This document shows positions 4,197 to 63,375 of a DNA stretch of 64,000 nt, piece after piece; within the stretch, counting starts at the first letter, position 1, and every line of letters starts with the position of its first letter. The notes under the pieces are model-generated. The model was not told where the DNA came from and made no database searches. It saw only the letters and a program-made list of their open reading frames with translations. Made by a program: the position numbers and the translations under genes. The stretch is from Escherichia coli (GTDB lineage: Bacteria; Pseudomonadota; Gammaproteobacteria; Enterobacterales; Enterobacteriaceae): the NCBI RefSeq assembly GCF_044324875.1, contig NZ_CP172188.1; one strand, given 5' to 3'.

Positions 4197-4301
4197 AATA
4201 CTGACTGTTGCGCCCTGGCATTATCGTGGGGTATATTTCTACGGCACCTTAGAAAAACGGGTGCCGGGATTGGAACCCCGGATAATGCAAAAGGCGACAC
4301 A

Positions 4302-4323
4302 GACGCCGAAAGCGTCTTTTCTT
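4302..4323 (+). terminator. rho-independent terminator candidate
   Basis: gacgc-cgaaa-gcgtc hairpin followed by ttttctt. Confidence 0.5.
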
Positions 4324-4329
4324 GTGTCA

Positions 4330-4508
4330 TGCCATCGCACAGCCATACGTAGCGTTTAGCTCAGAGATCAATGGTAGTGCTGGCTGGGCTGCCGAAAGGC
4401 AGGCCGGTTCCCTTTTGCGCCGGTAGTTCCAACCCAGTCAGTGCTACCGCCATTGAGATTGGAACCTCACGCGGTAGCTCCTTAAATTAGCAAAAGGAGG
4501 CTGCCAAT
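4330..4508 (+). promoter_or_regulatory. structured leader of antirepressor module A (differs from the leaders of modules B/C/D)
   Basis: Hairpins ctgcc-gaaa-ggcag (~4388-4401) and gttccaa...ttggaac (~4415-4458); AGGAGG before the ATG at 4509. Confidence 0.3.
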
Positions 4509-21392: not shown

Positions 21393-23054
21393 TTAACCTA
21401 ACTTCGCCCAGGTATCACGCAGCCCAACGGTGCGGTTAAATACCGGTTTTTCCGCCGTAGAATGGCGGCTATCGAGGCAGAAGTAACCTTCACGCTCAAA
21501 CTGGAATGCTTTACCCGCAACCGCATCTTTCAGCGACGGTTCAGCAAAGCCCTGTTTGATCACCAGCGATTCCGGGTTAATCACCGACAGGAAATCATCC
21601 GCAGCACCTGGGTTAGGCACGCTGAACAGACGATCGTACAGGCGGATTTCAACCGGCAGCGCATGTGCCGCGCTCACCCAGTGAATAACGCCTTTCACTT
21701 TACGACCATCTGCCGGATCTTTGCTTAAGGTGTCGGCGTCATAAGTACAGAAGATGGTGGTGATATTGCCTTCGGCATCTTTCTCCACGCGTTCAGCCTT
21801 AATGACGTAAGCATTACGCAGACGCACTTCTTTACCCAGCACCAGACGTTTGTACTGCTTGTTAGCTTCTTCGCGGAAATCGGCGCGGTCGATCCAAATC
21901 TCACCGCTAAACGGCACCTGACGGCTACCCATTTCCGGTTTGTTCGGATGGTTCGGCATGGTGACCATTTCGCCTTCGCCCTGGTAGTTTTCGATAACCA
22001 GTTTCACCGGATCGATAACCGCCATTGCGCGCGGCGCATTTTCGTTGAGATCTTCACGGATGCAGGATTCCAGCGACGCCATCTCAATGGTGTTGTCCTG
22101 CTTGGTCACGCCGATGCGTTTGCAGAACTCACGAATAGAAGCCGCAGTGTAACCACGACGACGCAGACCGGAAATGGTCGGCATACGCGGGTCATCCCAG
22201 CCTTCAACGTGTTTGTCGGTCACCAGCAGGTTCAGCTTACGCTTGGACATCACGGTGTATTCCAGATTCAGGCGCGAGAATTCGTACTGGCGCGGGTGAA
22301 CAGGAATGGTGATGTTGTCCAGCACCCAGTCGTACAGGCGACGGTTGTCCTGGAACTCAAGCGTACACAGAGAGTGCGTAATACCTTCCAGCGCATCGCT
22401 GATGCAATGGGTGAAGTCGTACATCGGGTAGATGCACCACTTGTTGCCAGTCTGGTGGTGTTCAGCAAATTTAATGCGGTACAGCACCGGATCGCGCATT
22501 ACGATAAATGGCGACGCCATGTCGATTTTCGCACGCAGGCAGGCTTTACCTTCTTCAAAACCACCGGCACGCATTTTTTCGAACAGCGCCAGGTTCTCTT
22601 CAACGCTGCGATCGCGGTACGGGCTGTTTTTACCCGGCTGCGTCAGGGTGCCGCGGTATTCGCGGATCTGTTCCGGCGTCAGTTCGTCAACATACGCCAG
22701 GCCTTTGTTGATCAGTTCAACAGCATAGGCGTGGAGCTGATCAAAATAATCGGAGGAGTAACGGATGTTGCCAGACCAGTGAAAACCTAACCATTCAACG
22801 TCGTTTTTAATCGACTCGACGTACTCGATATCTTCTTTTACCGGGTTAGTGTCGTCGAAACGCAGGTTGCACTGGCCTTTATAGTCCTGGGCGATCCCGA
22901 AGTTCAGGCAGATAGATTTCGCATGACCAATATGCAGATAGCCATTCGGTTCCGGCGGGAAACGGGTATGTACTGTGGTGTGCTTACCACTGGCCAGATC
23001 TTCATCGATGATCTGACGAATAAAGTTAGTCGGGCGGGCTTCTGCCTCACTCAT
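21393..23054 (-). CDS. glnS: glutamine--tRNA ligase (GlnRS)
   Basis: 553 aa, colinear with E. coli GlnS over the whole length as I recall it (HIGH motif, VMSKR motif); C-terminus ...WAKLG. Confidence 0.95.
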
Positions 23055-25871: not shown

Positions 25872-25964
25872 ATTGCTCCACTTCTGAGACACATTTGAGA
25901 AAGAATTGAATCTTATATGAGAAAACAAAATAAAACCAGAAGTTGAGAGAGCAAAAAGCACCAG

Positions 25965-26032
25965 ATTTGAGACAAACCAGAGACAAACCAGAGACAAACT
26001 AGAGACACACTAGAGACAAGTATGAGAAACAA
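25965..26032. repeat. parC-like centromere iterons upstream of parM
   Basis: Five to six tandem ~11-bp units GAGACAAACCA / GAGACAAACTA / GAGACACACTA / GAGACAAGTAT. Confidence 0.6.
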
Positions 26033-26090
26033 GAAATCTTAAGAGTGAAAATCACAAAGTGGAGAAGATTTAAGAAAAAGGAGGTGTTAG

Positions 26091-26375
26091 ATGAGTGCAA
26101 TAGCGACCTGTGACACAGTTTGTTCCGGTCATGGAGGATTCCCTCCGCGACCTGTAGCAGAAACAGTTTCCTGGTTTACCGTAAATGGAAAGCCAGTTGT
26201 TGTAGATGGTGCCATGTTTCCCAGTCACACTGACGGTAACAGTGCACATCCAGGGGCAGCTGTATCGACGCGAGTATGGTTTTCGATAGGTGGAAAGGGA
26301 GTTGTCTGTGTAGGCGATCCGCTTTCTTGTGGTTCTGTTATCGCCAACGGCGAGGATATTTTTCAGGTTGCATAA
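26091..26375 (+). CDS. PAAR-like spike-tip protein
   Basis: 94 aa; Cys/His/Gly-Pro pattern CDTVCSGHGGFPP...HPGAAVS...GDPLSCGSV typical of PAAR-repeat proteins; strong AAGGAGG Shine-Dalgarno. Confidence 0.55.
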   Translation: MSAIATCDTVCSGHGGFPPRPVAETVSWFTVNGKPVVVDGAMFPSHTDGNSAHPGAAVSTRVWFSIGGKGVVCVGDPLSCGSVIANGEDIFQVA

Positions 26376-27181
26376 TGCTTGATTCAATAGGTGAAGTTAA
26401 AGCCTTCAAAATTCTGTCAGATGCCGGTATCTCTACACCAGAATCTATAACCATAAGCCGGGCAGCTTCTGTAAAAGCCTCATCGCTCGCCAGCGCCATA
26501 CAGGGAATAGTTCACGCCGATAAAACCTATCCTGATTCTGTTTCGGCCTGGACTACTCAATTGCTTGGCTTTTCTGAACAGCTCAATGAGGCCAGCAAAG
26601 CGTCTTCATCACTGGCTGATTCTCTTTCCCCATACACCAAGCCATCAGAGCTGTTACAGATGAAGATTGGCTGGGAATGCTACGCAAAAGGTAACGAGCT
26701 GACCCCCATACCTGCTTTCGCCCTTGTTGAGGGAATGGGGAATGTTTCCATTCCGCAATCTCTAACGGACGCATTGACGGCGCTAAAACTTGATGCTCTG
26801 AAAACCGCCATGAACGCCATTAACGCAAAAATTGAAGCTGCCGGAAGTGCTGGTGGTGGTGAAAGCAATGGTGGACAGGGTGGTGCTGGGGGCGCTCAGG
26901 CTCCAGTCATTACTCAGGATGAAATTGATGCTTTACGGGAAGCAGTGACAGCCGCCGAAGTTTTACTCTCCGAAATTAACTCAGCAAGTGAGGGTGTCGT
27001 AGCCCTTACAGGTCGCATTAAAACGTCAACCACTCAGGCAACCAAAGGTTTAGAGAACGCTGTCGCCATCACGTTAACTGGTTCTCTACTGGATGATGCA
27101 GTAATGAGTCCGGCAATCAGTTTAATCATGCCACAAGGCGTTATTGATGCGCTCCAAAAGAACACCAAAAAGGAACCATAG
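26375..27181 (+). CDS. hypothetical two-domain protein with a Gly-rich linker, coupled to the PAAR gene
   Basis: Start ATG overlaps the PAAR stop (TAATG); internal linker AAGSAGGGESNGGQGGAGGAQAPV. Confidence 0.45.
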   Translation: MLDSIGEVKAFKILSDAGISTPESITISRAASVKASSLASAIQGIVHADKTYPDSVSAWTTQLLGFSEQLNEASKASSSLADSLSPYTKPSELLQMKIGWECYAKGNELTPIPAFALVEGMGNVSIPQSLTDALTALKLDALKTAMNAINAKIEAAGSAGGGESNGGQGGAGGAQAPVITQDEIDALREAVTAAEVLLSEINSASEGVVALTGRIKTSTTQATKGLENAVAITLTGSLLDDAVMSPAISLIMPQGVIDALQKNTKKEP

Positions 27182-27206
27182 AAACACCACTTAGGCACAC
27201 AAAAGG

Positions 27207-27710
27207 ATGTATATTGGTACATGTTTAACACCAAAAATGAACCTGAAGAGGATGGTTTTGAAAAAGATAATTTTGATTGTAATTGCGCTTTTAGCCATTT
27301 CTGGAATTTACCGAACAACGACGGCAGTTATCGAACACATCAGGTATGTCCGATCGCTTGAAGACTCAAAATCACAACTGGAAAGCACGAACAACACGCT
27401 TTCTACCGCATTACAGTTAAGTGAGAACGCTCGCTCAGCCATGCTGACCGAAAACGAAAGAATTAAAGCACTGGAAAAGGAGTACCAGCGCAAAACAGCA
27501 GAACTGAATGCCAACCTAATCAAACAACGAGAGGAAAGCCAGAATGAAATCACTCGCCTTGAAAATGCGTTGCGCCGTGCTGGGATTAACGATGTGCGTG
27601 TGCCTGATGACGTTATCAGGATGCAGCGGGAACGGGCAAAAGCCATCAACCAGCGTGCCAGTGAAAATTACCGTAGAAGCCACCAGCAAGCCGCAGGCAA
27701 ATCTGATTGA
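27207..27710 (+). CDS. i-spanin (Rz-like): N-terminal membrane anchor plus coiled coil
   Basis: Hydrophobic IILIVIALLAISGIY then heptad-rich region; start ambiguous (27207, 27237 or 27252). Confidence 0.55.
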   Translation: MYIGTCLTPKMNLKRMVLKKIILIVIALLAISGIYRTTTAVIEHIRYVRSLEDSKSQLESTNNTLSTALQLSENARSAMLTENERIKALEKEYQRKTAELNANLIKQREESQNEITRLENALRRAGINDVRVPDDVIRMQRERAKAINQRASENYRRSHQQAAGKSD

Positions 27711-27870
27711 TTACTCCCCTTGTTTAGTGCCAGAGGACACGCCAGTGCTGTTAAACAAGTATCCGACATACGCTGAACAGTTATTCAGCACGATCGACGA
27801 ATGCAACCAACGAAACGCACTGAATAACCAAAGAAACAGGGAGATTTGGGAAGGGAAGGGGCGGCAGTGA
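27544..27870 (+). CDS. o-spanin (Rz1-like lipoprotein), overlapping Rz in another frame
   Basis: Signal peptide with lipobox LSGC; Pro-rich mature part; begins inside the Rz gene in a different frame and extends past it; GAGAGGAAAG Shine-Dalgarno. Confidence 0.6.
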   Translation: MKSLALKMRCAVLGLTMCVCLMTLSGCSGNGQKPSTSVPVKITVEATSKPQANLIDYSPCLVPEDTPVLLNKYPTYAEQLFSTIDECNQRNALNNQRNREIWEGKGRQ

Positions 27871-27896
27871 GCTTCACAAAATCTATATAGCTATTT

Positions 27897-27909
27897 TATG
27901 TTAGAAAAA
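27897..27909 (+). promoter_or_regulatory. copy of dispersed motif (TATGTTAGAAAAA) ~50 bp upstream of the module B promoter
   Basis: See findings. Confidence 0.35.
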
Positions 27910-27961
27910 TAATTTGAATTTTCGAACATAAACAATAAAATAAATCATCAAAAATTTGATG

Positions 27962-27990
27962 TTGATCTTCCATGTTTTCAGGCTTATATT
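27962..27990 (+). promoter_or_regulatory. sigma70-like promoter of module B
   Basis: TTGATC - 17 bp - TATATT; identical sequence in module D and, reverse-complemented, in module C. Confidence 0.5.
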
Positions 27991-27996
27991 CACGCC

Positions 27997-28237
27997 GTTG
28001 CAGCAAATTCTGCGACCGGGTTTAGCAGCCTGAATGTACATGCGGACAACCGCAGATATCCGATATTGCGGTATTTTTGTGTCCGTAAAACCATGTTACG
28101 CCCGAATTATGGTGGGGCGTGATGGGGAGGCTTCGGCCTGCTGGTTTCATGTACGCCAGTCTGCTAACCCCGTCACGTCCTGCCACCCGTTTAGCAGCGG
28201 GTAGCAGGTTGTTAAACCTGTACATGAGGCCGTAACT
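27997..28237 (+). ncRNA. structured leader with an embedded c4-like antisense regulator and two target sites (module B)
   Basis: Elements TTAGCAG/GTACATG at 28022-28042 and 28191-28226 (the second abuts the GAGG Shine-Dalgarno) are complementary to CATGTAC/CTGCTAA at 28148-28167; the complementarity is kept by compensatory changes in modules C and D. Confidence 0.5.
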
Positions 28238-28462
28238 ATGGTTAATGCCAATCCTTGCTCACGTCCAGAATTCATCTGGCGTTTTCACTCCCTGCAAAAA
28301 CACTGCGATCACTTCGCAATTGCCGCAACTGAAAAAGAAGCCCGTTCTCTGATCCCTGATCAGTATGGTGTTCTTACTGGTCGTTTCTCTACTTCCCCAC
28401 AACCAAACACTAATCCCTGGTATCGCAATATTACCAATCCCGGAATTGCGGAGGCACACTGA
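28238..28462 (+). CDS. small protein upstream of the antirepressor (Icd-position ORF, module B)
   Basis: 74 aa; TGATG coupling to the next gene. Confidence 0.65.
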   Translation: MVNANPCSRPEFIWRFHSLQKHCDHFAIAATEKEARSLIPDQYGVLTGRFSTSPQPNTNPWYRNITNPGIAEAH

Positions 28463-29382
28463 TGGATATCTGCATTCTTGAAAAGCCATCAATGACCAGC
28501 ATTGAGATCGCGGAGCTGGTGGGAAGTCGTCCAGATAACGTAAAAATATCAATAGAGCGCCTGGCTAAATCTGGAGTTATTCAACTTCCTGCATTGCAGG
28601 TTTTCGAAAAAATCAATAACTTAGGACTACGCCGTAGTGTCGAGGCTTACGTCTTCGAAGGCGAGCAAGGCAAACGAGACAGCATTATTGTCGTTGCGCA
28701 GCTCTCTCCCGAATTCACCGCCCGGCTGGTGGACCGCTGGCGCGAACTGGAAGAACAAGTACGCCAGCCGTTGACCGAAATAGAGATGATCGCCGCAATG
28801 GCTGCAAATGCAGTTCAGCAGCAAAAGCGGCTTCATGTTGTTGAGTCAAAGGTTAGCCAGGTTGCTGAAACCGTCGAGCAGATCAAGAAGGGCAACATGC
28901 CAGAAGGTTACATTGGCTACCGCCAGCTGGCGGCGAAATGTGGCCTGACTGAAGCCAAATGTCGCAACCTGGTTAACGCTTTCCGGATTCCCACCGATAC
29001 GCATGAGTTTTTAACTCCAGATGGTTTGCTTGCGCGACGCTCCATTGTGGCCCTGGCCCCCTTCCGGAAAGCCTTTAAGCAGGTGATGTCGGAGGCAGAA
29101 CCACGCAACAAACGCTGGTATCATCCGAAGATGGGGCTGTTTCAGGCAATCCATCATCCTGTGCCTGAAAGCCCAAAGGATAATCTGTCACTACATACCG
29201 TCAGAGAGAAGATCAGGACTGGATACGCAACAGTGTGTCGTCGTTCTTCCTGGCCTGAAGGTATATGGGTGTGGCCCGAAGGTGGATCACGAAAGCACTG
29301 GCGCACTATCCGGGACGGGAAAATCCATGCTATTGATTTAGCGCCAGAGGATATTGTTGCTACGGACTGGATTGTTAGTTAA
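28462..29382 (+). CDS. phage antirepressor-type protein (Rha-like N-domain), module B
   Basis: 306 aa; N-terminus ...MTSIEIAELVGSRPDNVKISIERL...; conserved C-terminal domain. Confidence 0.65.
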   Translation: MDICILEKPSMTSIEIAELVGSRPDNVKISIERLAKSGVIQLPALQVFEKINNLGLRRSVEAYVFEGEQGKRDSIIVVAQLSPEFTARLVDRWRELEEQVRQPLTEIEMIAAMAANAVQQQKRLHVVESKVSQVAETVEQIKKGNMPEGYIGYRQLAAKCGLTEAKCRNLVNAFRIPTDTHEFLTPDGLLARRSIVALAPFRKAFKQVMSEAEPRNKRWYHPKMGLFQAIHHPVPESPKDNLSLHTVREKIRTGYATVCRRSSWPEGIWVWPEGGSRKHWRTIRDGKIHAIDLAPEDIVATDWIVS

Positions 29383-29389
29383 TTACTGT

Positions 29390-29413
29390 TGCCCCGGCCT
29401 GTCCGGGGCTTTC
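29390..29413 (+). terminator. conserved hairpin / terminator after module B
   Basis: ccccgg-cctgt-ccgggg followed by cttt. Confidence 0.5.
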
Positions 29414-29417
29414 GTGA

Positions 29418-29822
29418 CTAAAAATCTGTTCGCTGTCGCCATGCGTTTTTTAACTCAGGAATATCCGCCATTTCAATTAACTTGCGAAGTCCAGCACTGA
29501 CTTTCCCATTGCCAACCATAGCAAGCCAATCTCTTACAGCTTTCGGCATGTAGAGCGTTGCAGTTACCGGCTCTTCAACCCTGGCAGGACATCCGCATAC
29601 AGGCCATTTAATTGATTCCATAACTTCGGATGCCGGGGTGAGGGCGGGGACATTGAGTATATCTCTACCAGAAAACTGGATAACGATCCGTTCAGCGAGC
29701 GAGAGTATCTCACTTTCGGCAAGAATTGATGCCAACTGCGCCTCAACAAGAAAGCGACTTGTTGTGTTCAGAGAGTGGCTCTTAGCGCCATTTTTATACG
29801 AAACAAAGATTCGATACGCCAT
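29418..29822 (-). CDS. hypothetical protein (134 aa)
   Basis: ORF; its start lies 12 bp from a copy of the dispersed motif (29834-29848). Confidence 0.45.
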   Translation of the reverse strand: MAYRIFVSYKNGAKSHSLNTTSRFLVEAQLASILAESEILSLAERIVIQFSGRDILNVPALTPASEVMESIKWPVCGCPARVEEPVTATLYMPKAVRDWLAMVGNGKVSAGLRKLIEMADIPELKNAWRQRTDF

Positions 29823-38325: not shown

Positions 38326-38566
38326 AGTTACGGCCTCATGTACAGGTTTAACAACCTGCTACCCGCTGTCAAACAGGTGGCAGGGCGTGACAGGGTTGAC
38401 AGACTGGCGTACATGAAACCAGCAGGCCGAAGCCTCCCCATCACGCCCCACCATAATTCGGGCGTAACGTGGTTTACGGACACAAAAATACCGCAATATC
38501 GGAAATCTGCGGATGTCCGCATGTACATTCAGGCTGTCAAACCTGGTCGCAGAATTTGCTACGACG
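38326..38566 (-). ncRNA. structured leader with a c4-like antisense regulator (module C)
   Basis: Minus-strand elements TTGACAG/GTACATG (targets) and CATGTAC/CTGTCAA (antisense) in the same arrangement as module B. Confidence 0.5.
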
Positions 38567-38571
38567 GCGTG

Positions 38572-38600
38572 AATATAAGCCTGAACATCTGGAAGATCAA
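38572..38600 (-). promoter_or_regulatory. sigma70-like promoter of module C
   Basis: Reverse complement of TTGATC-17-TATATT. Confidence 0.5.
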
Positions 38601-53891: not shown

Positions 53892-54218
53892 ATGTTTGCA
53901 GATTATGAAAATCTGGCTGTAGTAGTCATAACATCCCTACTAAGTGGAACCGGCGTATTCCTTCTCGGAGTTAGAGACGGGCGCATTTCTGCGTCCCTGC
54001 TCAATCTTGCGAGTGAATTGTTTACTGCGGTAACAGCCGGGCTTGCGGGGTATGGGGTGGCGGTTAGCCAAGAATGGCCTGAAGGTATCATTTTCTGCGT
54101 TGTTCTGATTGCCAGTAACAACGGTAGTGAAATTTTACAGGGCTTGAAGTCCAGAGCTAGTAACGTCTTGAATCTCTTAAGCGTAATAGCGAATGGGGGA
54201 AAAGGTGGAGAGAAATAA
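53892..54218 (+). CDS. holin-like small membrane protein (LydA-position)
   Basis: 108 aa with ~3 hydrophobic segments; first gene after the invertase, as in the P1 lydA position. Confidence 0.4.
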   Translation: MFADYENLAVVVITSLLSGTGVFLLGVRDGRISASLLNLASELFTAVTAGLAGYGVAVSQEWPEGIIFCVVLIASNNGSEILQGLKSRASNVLNLLSVIANGGKGGEK

Positions 54219-54664
54219 TGGGTAACTTTGGAAATTATTTCATTTTTATCATGGCATTTGTTGCCATCATTGACCGTTTCATTTTTCGTCGCAAGAGTGT
54301 TGAGATTTTGAGTATTGGTGACGCTGTAGTGAAAGAATCCGCTATAGCATTTCCTGTTTCGCTACGTGTTAAGCGAAGCTGGGTCAGCAATGCTCAAATC
54401 GAATATTGGTTGCAAGACCTGAAAAATCCATCTGTGGTTATTTCAGGGAAAACGCGACCAGTTGACGCCTCAAAACGCGGTGAGAGAGAAGAGTATTTGC
54501 TCATCGATACGAAATATCTTGAGCCAACGAAGTGGGATCTGAAAGTCACATTGACTAACGGTAACTGCCGACTGAATCCGCTTTATCGCATTTTCCCTAT
54601 CAATGACTGCATAGAGCGCCAGTTTACGATCGAAAAGCGTAAAGGAGACTGGGATGTCAAATAA
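54218..54664 (+). CDS. membrane-anchored protein (antiholin / LydB-position, tentative)
   Basis: 148 aa; N-terminal hydrophobic segment NYFIFIMAFVAIIDRFIF; ATGA coupling. Confidence 0.35.
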   Translation: MGNFGNYFIFIMAFVAIIDRFIFRRKSVEILSIGDAVVKESAIAFPVSLRVKRSWVSNAQIEYWLQDLKNPSVVISGKTRPVDASKRGEREEYLLIDTKYLEPTKWDLKVTLTNGNCRLNPLYRIFPINDCIERQFTIEKRKGDWDVK

Positions 54665-63100: not shown

Positions 63101-63129
63101 TTGATCTTCCATGTTTTCAGGCTTATATT
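63101..63129 (+). promoter_or_regulatory. sigma70-like promoter of module D
   Basis: TTGATC-17-TATATT, identical to module B. Confidence 0.5.
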
Positions 63130-63135
63130 CATGCC

Positions 63136-63375
63136 GTCGTAGCAAATTCTGCGACCAGGTTTGACAGCCTGAATGTTAGTGCGGACAACCGCAGATTTCC
63201 GATATTGCGGTATTTTTGTGTCCGTAAACCGCGTTACGCCCGAATTATGGTGGGGCGTGATGGGGAGGCTTCGGCCTGCTGGTTTCACTAACGCCAGTCT
63301 GTCAACCCTGTCACGTCCTGCCACCTGTTTGACAGCGGGTAGCAGGTTGTTAAACCTGTTAGTGAGGCCGTAACT
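63136..63375 (+). ncRNA. structured leader with a c4-like antisense regulator (module D)
   Basis: TTGACAG/GTTAGTG at 63161-63181 and 63329-63364; complementary CACTAAC/CTGTCAA at 63286-63305. Confidence 0.5.

Follow-up and report, generated by a model that had tools for sequence, protein, structure and literature searches.

Described two-component spanins and the D6-type locus

The closest described counterparts of the gene pair analysed here are the two-component spanins of phages lambda, T4 and P1; spanins breach the outer membrane as the last step of phage lysis. In lambda, the i-spanin Rz spans the inner membrane in type II orientation and has two helices joined by a linker in the periplasm; the o-spanin Rz1, a lipoprotein of the outer membrane, is read from the same DNA in the +1 frame, its gene lying wholly inside Rz. 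The lambda pair ends a contiguous S-R-Rz/Rz1 cassette. Mature Rz1 is about 40 aa long and roughly 25% proline, and it has no predicted helix; Rz carries two periplasmic cysteines and Rz1 one. The T4 genes PseT.3 and PseT.2 stand separate from each other and lie away from the holin and endolysin genes. The T4 o-spanin is larger and has a predicted C-terminal helix; with two periplasmic cysteines in it against none in the i-spanin, T4 shows the distribution most frequent in SpaninDB. In P1 the gene order is upfC (PAAR)-upfB-ppfA-mlp, with mlp starting inside ppfA, sharing 167 nt with it and running 166 nt beyond. RefSeq names P1 mlp ‘Rz-like spanin’, and the SpaninDB supplement (Kongari et al. 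2018) lists P1 (NC_005856) under class ‘ovl’ with gp064 (PpfA) as i-spanin; PpfA/Mlp is also the predicted overlapped spanin of P7. A 2022 paper on P1 lysis treats ppfA and mlp as the P1 spanin genes, whose sequences partly overlap and whose operon is not linked to the remaining lysis genes; it bases this assignment on predicted features, and the ‘i’ and ‘o’ labels are swapped in its text. Both genes scored as non-essential in a P1 CRISPRi screen.

The pair described here lies in a 64,000-nt stretch of Escherichia coli DNA (the window) that is ~98% identical to Escherichia phage D6 (NC_050154), a 91-kb circular plasmid prophage and relative of P1. The window also matches non-mobilizable plasmids of ~90 kb, over 120 in number, from E. 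coli, Salmonella and Shigella; the locus of the pair is present in 123 plasmid records. A direct comparison places the window collinear with D6 from 77.8 kb down to 20.3 kb, with a few module replacements and with a recombination junction at ~27861. From the features set out below we regard it as highly likely that the pair, borne on a D6-like phage-plasmid, is that element's two-component spanin and corresponds to P1 PpfA (i-spanin) and Mlp (o-spanin). The features of the locus, and the holin and antiholin genes further along the window, are as follows.

26049..26069, + strand: candidate late-promoter element AAATCACA-N7-GAAGAT, upstream of the PAAR/UpfB/spanin operon
26091..26375, + strand: PAAR-domain gene, homologue of P1 upfC, first gene of the apparent operon
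26375..27181, + strand: UpfB-like gene, second gene of the apparent operon (phrog_1559, 3.3e-110, ‘unknown function’)
27245-27251, + strand: Shine-Dalgarno sequence GAAGAGG, 6 nt 5' of TTG 27258, kept in orthologues
27258..27710, + strand: putative i-spanin gene, PpfA/Rz analogue, 150 aa from TTG 27258 (start inferred)
27267..27311, + strand: predicted transmembrane anchor of the i-spanin, IILIVIALLAISGIY, following Lys-Lys (Kyte-Doolittle 19-residue maximum 2.48)
27529..27535, + strand: Shine-Dalgarno sequence GAGAGGA inside the i-spanin coding sequence, 8-9 nt 5' of the o-spanin ATG at 27544
27544..27710, + strand: dual-coding overlap of 167 nt; one frame gives the linker and second helix of the i-spanin (AGINDVRVPDDVIRMQRERAKAINQRA...), the other the signal peptide, lipobox and Pro-rich N-terminus of the o-spanin
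27544..27870, + strand: putative o-spanin gene, Mlp/Rz1 analogue; 108-aa precursor, mature form of 82 aa with Cys60 and Cys87
27613..27624, + strand: lipobox L-S-G-C, precursor residues 24-27, with Ser at +2
53892-54218, + strand: LydA holin gene (phrog_1527 holin, 8e-39)
54218-54664, + strand: LydB antiholin gene (phrog_1898, 6e-69; Pfam LydB, 1e-24)

How does this locus compare with the described pairs? It shares the gene order of P1, and the synteny of upfC (PAAR), upfB, i-spanin and o-spanin genes with a 167-nt overlap is present in the window, in P1 and in all orthologous loci; downstream of the pair, P1 has upfA and the window a c4-icd-ant module. With lambda it has in common a predicted type II i-spanin whose periplasmic part has two helices and a linker, together with a lipoprotein gene that uses the +1 frame of this i-spanin's DNA, and profiles phrog_214 and phrog_2466 point to a weak relatedness; the membrane-fusion mechanism is presumed to be alike. 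It differs from lambda in that the o-spanin gene extends past the i-spanin gene, in its cysteines (none in the i-spanin and two in the o-spanin), in its distance of 26 kb from the holin gene and in its longer mature o-spanin of 82 aa with ~9% proline and a predicted C-terminal helix. The cysteine distribution, the larger o-spanin and the separation from holin and endolysin genes are those of T4, whose spanin genes are separate whereas those of the window overlap. As in P1, where ppfA and mlp are unlinked from lydA/lydB and from the endolysin gene, the D6-type pair stands apart from the other lysis genes.

Architecture and conservation of the gene pair

An earlier note on this DNA, made from the sequence, had described a spanin pair in which a proline-rich lipoprotein frame begins inside a membrane-anchored, coiled-coil frame that was read from 27207. 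The overlapped architecture stands as claimed: the open reading frame list and the sequence place 27544-27710 in two + strand frames, of which the second, 27544..27870, lies in the +1 frame of the i-spanin, shares 167 nt with it and extends 160 nt past its end. The start of the first gene needs correction. Its longest reading is 27207..27710 on the + strand, 167 aa, and further in-frame ATG codons lie at 27237 and 27252. We rejected ATG 27207 and ATG 27237, both of which lack conservation and a usable Shine-Dalgarno sequence. The most likely start, judged from the 5' DNA alignment, is TTG 27258, which would give a protein of 150 aa beginning M-KK-IILIV; in the orthologues a GAAGAGG, AAAGAGG or GGAGG box precedes, by 6 nt, a TTG or GTG codon aligned with 27258. 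Two loci (L009 and L010) differ, with an ATG start three codons further upstream behind its own GAGG box, and two lineages have CAG or CTG in place of ATG 27252. The GenBank annotation of D6 orf55 uses the same start as the TTG 27258 reading.

The i-spanin has a single hydrophobic segment, with its Kyte-Doolittle maximum over MVLKKIILIVIALLAISGI; the hydrophobic stretch is kept in orthologues and forms part of a continuous helix in the AlphaFold2 model. This anchor predicts a type II topology, N-in/C-out. Beyond the anchor the protein is highly charged (33% charged residues) and helical, and it contains no cysteine. The AlphaFold2 model, built on eight sequences and with a mean pLDDT of 86, has residues 2-114 in a first helix and 124-154 in a second, with a break at 115-123 (RAGINDVRV) between them; a crude heptad score gives positive values for both. 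One anchor, two modelled helices and this score fit the description of the first product as membrane-anchored and coiled-coil. A BFVD fold search with the model returned a single match, at E 7.5, and was uninformative because a long-helix model carries no fold signal.

The second product has the makings of an outer-membrane lipoprotein. Its signal peptide, MKSLALKMRCAVLGLTMCVCLMT-LSGC-S, comprises a basic n-region, a hydrophobic core and a canonical lipobox under the consensus [LVI][ASTVI][GAS]C without Asp at +2 (from the SpaninDB literature). The residue at +2 is Ser, not Asp, and the protein therefore lacks an inner-membrane retention signal. A six-frame lipoprotein scan of the whole 64 kb yielded this frame as the sole credible candidate, the other matches being antisense frames within larger genes. 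The LSGC lipobox of the earlier note is present as claimed and is invariant in orthologues; its description of the protein as proline-rich holds only moderately, with seven prolines among the 82 mature residues (~9%), six of them in the first 47. In a model of low confidence (pLDDT 64.9) the signal helix is followed by an unstructured region and by C-terminal helices at 66-72 and 74-103.

We compared the window, D6, seven further D6-type loci and phage P1. Over the D6-type loci the i-spanin ranges from 86% to ~42% identity to that of the window (D6, 100%), with dN/dS of 0.2-0.35. The second frame is open over 101-126 aa in D6, in the seven further loci and in P1, always from the same ATG start. 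Residues L24 S25 G26 C27 S28 are unchanged in nine sequences, P1 Mlp among them; loss of the lipobox in orthologues, which the earlier note had named as grounds for giving up its reading, was looked for, and the motif proved invariant instead. Cys60 is kept in all orthologues and both Cys60 and Cys87 in all D6-type sequences, Cys87 being absent from P1 Mlp. In the segment that belongs to the o-spanin alone (27711-27867, 157 nt), pN is 0.06-0.29 against a pS of 0.25 to ~1.0 or saturation, and dN/dS is 0.06-0.2 where computable. On these ratios the segment is under purifying selection. Within the overlap, 27544-27710, both frames show less synonymous change than the single-coding parts do, the pattern that dual coding would produce.

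These data bear directly on whether the lipoprotein frame is merely a chance opening within and beyond one real gene. The databases might be taken to favour such a reading. In the RefSeq plasmid records examined, annotated by PGAP, the i-spanin is called as ‘hypothetical protein’ and the o-spanin is omitted; the GenBank/RefSeq entry of D6 has orf55 (the i-spanin) and a truncated orf54, both ‘hypothetical’, and orf54 starts at an internal GVG-type codon and so has no signal peptide. Gene callers are biased against overlapped o-spanin genes (Kongari et al. 2018), and the omission and truncation here are instances of that documented artefact. The frame is open and carries LSGC-S in every orthologue, its ATG follows a good Shine-Dalgarno sequence, its product is homologous to P1 Mlp, and the synonymous sites of its single-coding segment approach saturation at low pN. 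A frame that is open everywhere, with pN far below pS, is therefore a real gene, and the conserved frame and lipobox together with the selection data effectively refute the chance reading, to which we attach next to no probability.

The same evidence weighs on a second alternative, namely that the pair is an inactive relic of spanin genes and that the outer membrane is disrupted in another way. Spanins are dispensable in shaken laboratory cultures, and the recombination junction at ~27861 has left the window with a difference from D6 in this region, both of which would suit a decaying locus. Against decay, both frames are intact in nine of nine loci, pN/pS lies well below 1 in the single-coding parts, and the lipobox, the cysteines and the C-terminal helix of the i-spanin are invariant or nearly so across sequences of ~42-100% identity. 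Given such strong purifying selection, we consider a relic very unlikely.

Relationship to known spanins and alternative roles

Profile searches place both proteins among spanins. The i-spanin matches three PHROG families labelled ‘Rz-like spanin’ (phrog_214, 3.4e-16; phrog_89, 2.6e-7; phrog_2466, 2.5e-4), and the o-spanin matches phrog_456, likewise ‘Rz-like spanin’ (2.6e-5), and phrog_30284, the P1 Mlp family (6.8e-4). Diverged orthologues match the same families, one of them (L007) reaching 5e-8 against the Mlp profile. Known proteins fall into these families too: P1 PpfA belongs to phrog_89 (5e-25), P1 Mlp to phrog_30284 (6.5e-79), and lambda Rz matches phrog_2466 and phrog_214. The top-scoring PHROGs, 17671 and 17138 (‘unknown function’), reach the C-terminal parts only and evidently derive from truncated D6-type calls. 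Pfam and NCBIfam scans of the pair gave no match at curated cut-offs, the best Pfam hit being O_Spanin_T7 at 16 bits against a cut-off of 25.

Searching both proteins against the phage collection by tblastn matched D6 alone and missed P1; the link to P1 is drawn from synteny, pairwise comparison and PHROG profiles. In pairwise comparison the o-spanin is 31% identical to P1 Mlp (E 1e-8), and the two are alike in the L-T/M-L-S-G-C-S-G lipobox region (LTLSGCSG) and in a Cys-x-x-P-E motif. The i-spanin aligns with PpfA from end to end at ~20-21% identity, with a marginal E of 0.04, and both have an AG...(V/I)P-D..R..R motif around the linker and second helix. By these comparisons, clear for the o-spanin and pairwise only marginal for the i-spanin, the pair is probably a divergent member of the P1 PpfA/Mlp lineage and an ordinary spanin of the overlapped class.

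The pair has all the sequence-level hallmarks of a two-component spanin of the overlapped class. These are the N-terminal anchor, the paired helices of the periplasmic domain, a lipoprotein signal for the outer membrane, the +1 overlap and periplasmic cysteines, each read from sequence or models. At least one periplasmic cysteine, serving homotypic intermolecular disulfides, occurs in 507 of 528 known spanin pairs (Kongari et al. 2018), and here the i-spanin contributes none and the o-spanin two. The pair very probably functions as a spanin, a role deduced from these sequence criteria. No other spanin is annotated in D6 and no other candidate was found in the window. None of the papers searched links D6-like phage-plasmids with the term ‘spanin’, and no D6 sequence is among the SpaninDB supplement entries searched.

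Could an inner-membrane protein and an outer-membrane lipoprotein that are both real serve the prophage or the virion in some way other than lysis? Superinfection exclusion, the blocking of entry, envelope modification of the kind carried out by Bor/Cor-type prophage lipoproteins or a role linked to PAAR and UpfB would be examples. The setting lends this idea some colour, with the pair sharing an operon with a PAAR spike-tip gene and a gene of unknown function, far from the holin and endolysin genes; ppfA and mlp of P1 are, moreover, non-essential by CRISPRi, and their own spanin function is itself predicted. The CRISPRi result counts neither way, since many laboratory conditions allow a phage to do without spanins; unlinked spanin genes have precedents in T4 and P1. 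Both partners match specifically the Rz-like spanin profiles, and the +1-frame overlap, the two-helix periplasmic domain and the conserved periplasmic cysteines form a spanin signature. In addition, a phage of Gram-negative hosts with holin and endolysin is expected to have a spanin, and there is no rival for that part in the window or in the D6 annotation. Taken together, these points make a non-lysis role improbable.

The linkage of the PAAR spike-tip gene, UpfB and the spanin pair, kept in P1 and in all D6-type phage-plasmids examined, also raises a wider proposal. D6 orf56 is annotated as ‘similar to P1 upfB’, and the UpfB-like protein matches no family of known function. There is a slight chance that the pair, or UpfB together with it, might act beyond lysis at the end of the cycle, in membrane fusion or envelope remodelling coupled to the tail tip, or that UpfB might be a lysis accessory. 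Our preferred reading remains that of a two-component spanin for end-of-cycle lysis.

Lysis genes, expression and proposed mechanism

The earlier note had seen no endolysin gene immediately upstream of the pair and had placed holin-like genes at 53892-54664, from which it took the lysis genes to be dispersed. Profile searches agree on the first point, the upstream neighbours being the PAAR (UpfC-like) and UpfB-like genes. PHROG and Pfam matches bear out the second and allow the two genes to be named, as those of the LydA holin and the LydB antiholin, with D6 orf30 and orf29 as the LydA/LydB counterparts. The putative peptidoglycan hydrolase of D6, orf16, maps past the window's right end, and nothing inside the window matches it. 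Dispersal is thus the arrangement found here as in P1 and T4, with LydA/LydB distant and the presumed endolysin gene outside the window. The 26 kb between the pair and the holin and antiholin genes mean that it is not part of a lysis cassette, a location that is typical of spanin genes and not defining.

How might the pair be expressed? The window contains 12 copies of the 8-mer AAATCACA where 3.4 would be expected, and none of 100 shuffles reached 12. Nine copies lie just 5' of structural or late operons with a -10-like hexamer 7 nt later; the operons associated with the element are those of gene 7, capsid gene 23, pmgB, R, ddrB, prt, a mat-like gene and the PAAR gene. In diverged orthologues the element keeps its place upstream of the PAAR gene, with the core AAAT(C/A)ACAAA and a hexamer ending in AAT or GAT; the remainder of the spacer is not kept. 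From this pattern we infer only that the element could be a D6-type late promoter driving the PAAR, UpfB and spanin genes. A further copy of the 8-mer at 27369, within the i-spanin gene, was considered as an internal promoter and is treated as a chance occurrence because its downstream hexamer is poor. The -22 box of P1 late promoters, AAGTGACTT, was dropped in favour of this 8-mer, as it is not enriched, with 30 copies found in the window against 27 expected and none upstream of the operon. In P1, sigma-70 promoters for ppfA are annotated inside upfB, whereas the window has its late-promoter-like motif 5' of the PAAR gene. A simple sigma-70 and terminator scan of 25900-28500 found sites no more often than in shuffles, and none was placed informatively between upfB and the spanin genes.

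Based on these observations and on analogy with lambda Rz/Rz1 and T4 PseT.3/PseT.2, we propose the following course of events. The spanin genes would probably be carried on a late transcript starting 5' of the PAAR gene. The i-spanin would be anchored in the inner membrane, its helical domain reaching into the periplasm, and the o-spanin, with a lipid attached at C27, would be delivered to the outer membrane's inner leaflet. Contacts between the periplasmic domains may then join the two partners into a complex that crosses the periplasm by way of the murein mesh. As cysteines are confined to the o-spanin, covalent dimerisation would occur through this partner, as in T4. When the LydA holin, under the control of LydB, allows the endolysin, by release or activation, to destroy the wall, the spanin complexes would be freed. 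The freed complexes would collapse and fuse the inner and outer membranes, and lysis would be complete.

What are the implications of the pair? Its main value lies in the correction of annotation, as phage-plasmids of the D6 type are frequent among E. coli, Salmonella and Shigella. The pair would also supply the missing outer-membrane step of the D6 lysis set, which otherwise consists of LydA, LydB and the peptidoglycan hydrolase. To the P1 PpfA/Mlp family it would add a divergent branch, ~20% identical in the i-spanin and ~31% in the o-spanin with the same 167-nt overlap, and this branch is a useful natural data set on the evolution of dual-coding spanin genes. The general understanding of spanins is unchanged by it. 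The imbalance in annotation extends to the protein collection, where the i-spanin cluster has 445 members and the clusters of full-length o-spanin have between 1 and 20. One of these full-length clusters carries the UniRef name ‘Lipoprotein’.

Module replacement at the end of the predicted spanin genes

Directly after the predicted spanin pair, a c4-icd-ant module of ~1.55 kb (27861-29433) stands in place of orf53 of Escherichia phage D6, the 91-kb plasmid prophage related to P1. The module is 90% identical to the one at 20.0-21.2 kb in D6, and the same arrangement after the spanin pair is found in some plasmids, for example pAPEC201603. The replacement junction lies within the final codons of the overlapping o-spanin gene, whose product is altered at its C-terminus from ...GKGDQGS to ...GKGRQ. 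At the D6-type orthologous locus L005 (2895-3275 of plasmid NZ_LR890273.1), the o-spanin frame extends to 126 aa, and the C-terminal extension contains a cysteine (...VKAPEARCPGCQLLRNRDRR). This extension, together with the differences between D6 and the window, shows that the predicted o-spanin's outermost C-terminal end is free to vary among D6-type loci.

The gene 5' of the spanins encodes a UpfB-like protein (26375-27181, +) with a Gly-rich low-complexity stretch, which is conserved in P1 and in all D6-type elements and is always flanked by the PAAR gene on one side and the spanins on the other. The protein has no Pfam match and its PHROG matches are exclusively of unknown function.

Multiple immI-type modules

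Rfam model RF01695 identifies four C4 antisense RNA genes in the window (69-77 bits), three of which have a1/b1 target sites:

4367-4454, +, C4 antisense RNA gene
28105-28190, +, C4 antisense RNA gene
38373-38458, -, C4 antisense RNA gene
63243-63328, +, C4 antisense RNA gene
27984-28036, 38526-38578, 63123-63175, a1/b1 targets

As icd-like or ant-like ORFs also follow the C4 modules examined, the window contains four immI-type modules. Two icd/ant pairs are annotated in the D6 record, and one is known in P1. Directly 5' of the first C4 RNA gene lies a match to the Hfq-binding sRNA isrK (4244-4322, +; Rfam, 59 bits against a gathering score of 50).

A candidate late-promoter motif and a synthetase gene

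The motif AAATCACA occurs 12 times in the window against 3.4 copies expected and recurs 5' of structural or late operons, with a -10-like hexamer 7 nt after it:

10202, 15566, 26049, 29856, 29911, 40169, 47867, 57605, 59052, +, AAATCACA with hexamer

It is unlike the -22 box of P1 late promoters, AAGTGACTT, which is not enriched in the window. AAATCACA with its hexamer is a candidate late-promoter signature of D6-type phage-plasmids.

The window also contains the counterpart of D6 orf62, a phage-plasmid-encoded, GlnS-like gene that the D6 record already notes:

21393-23054, -, 553-aa ORF, glutaminyl-tRNA synthetase
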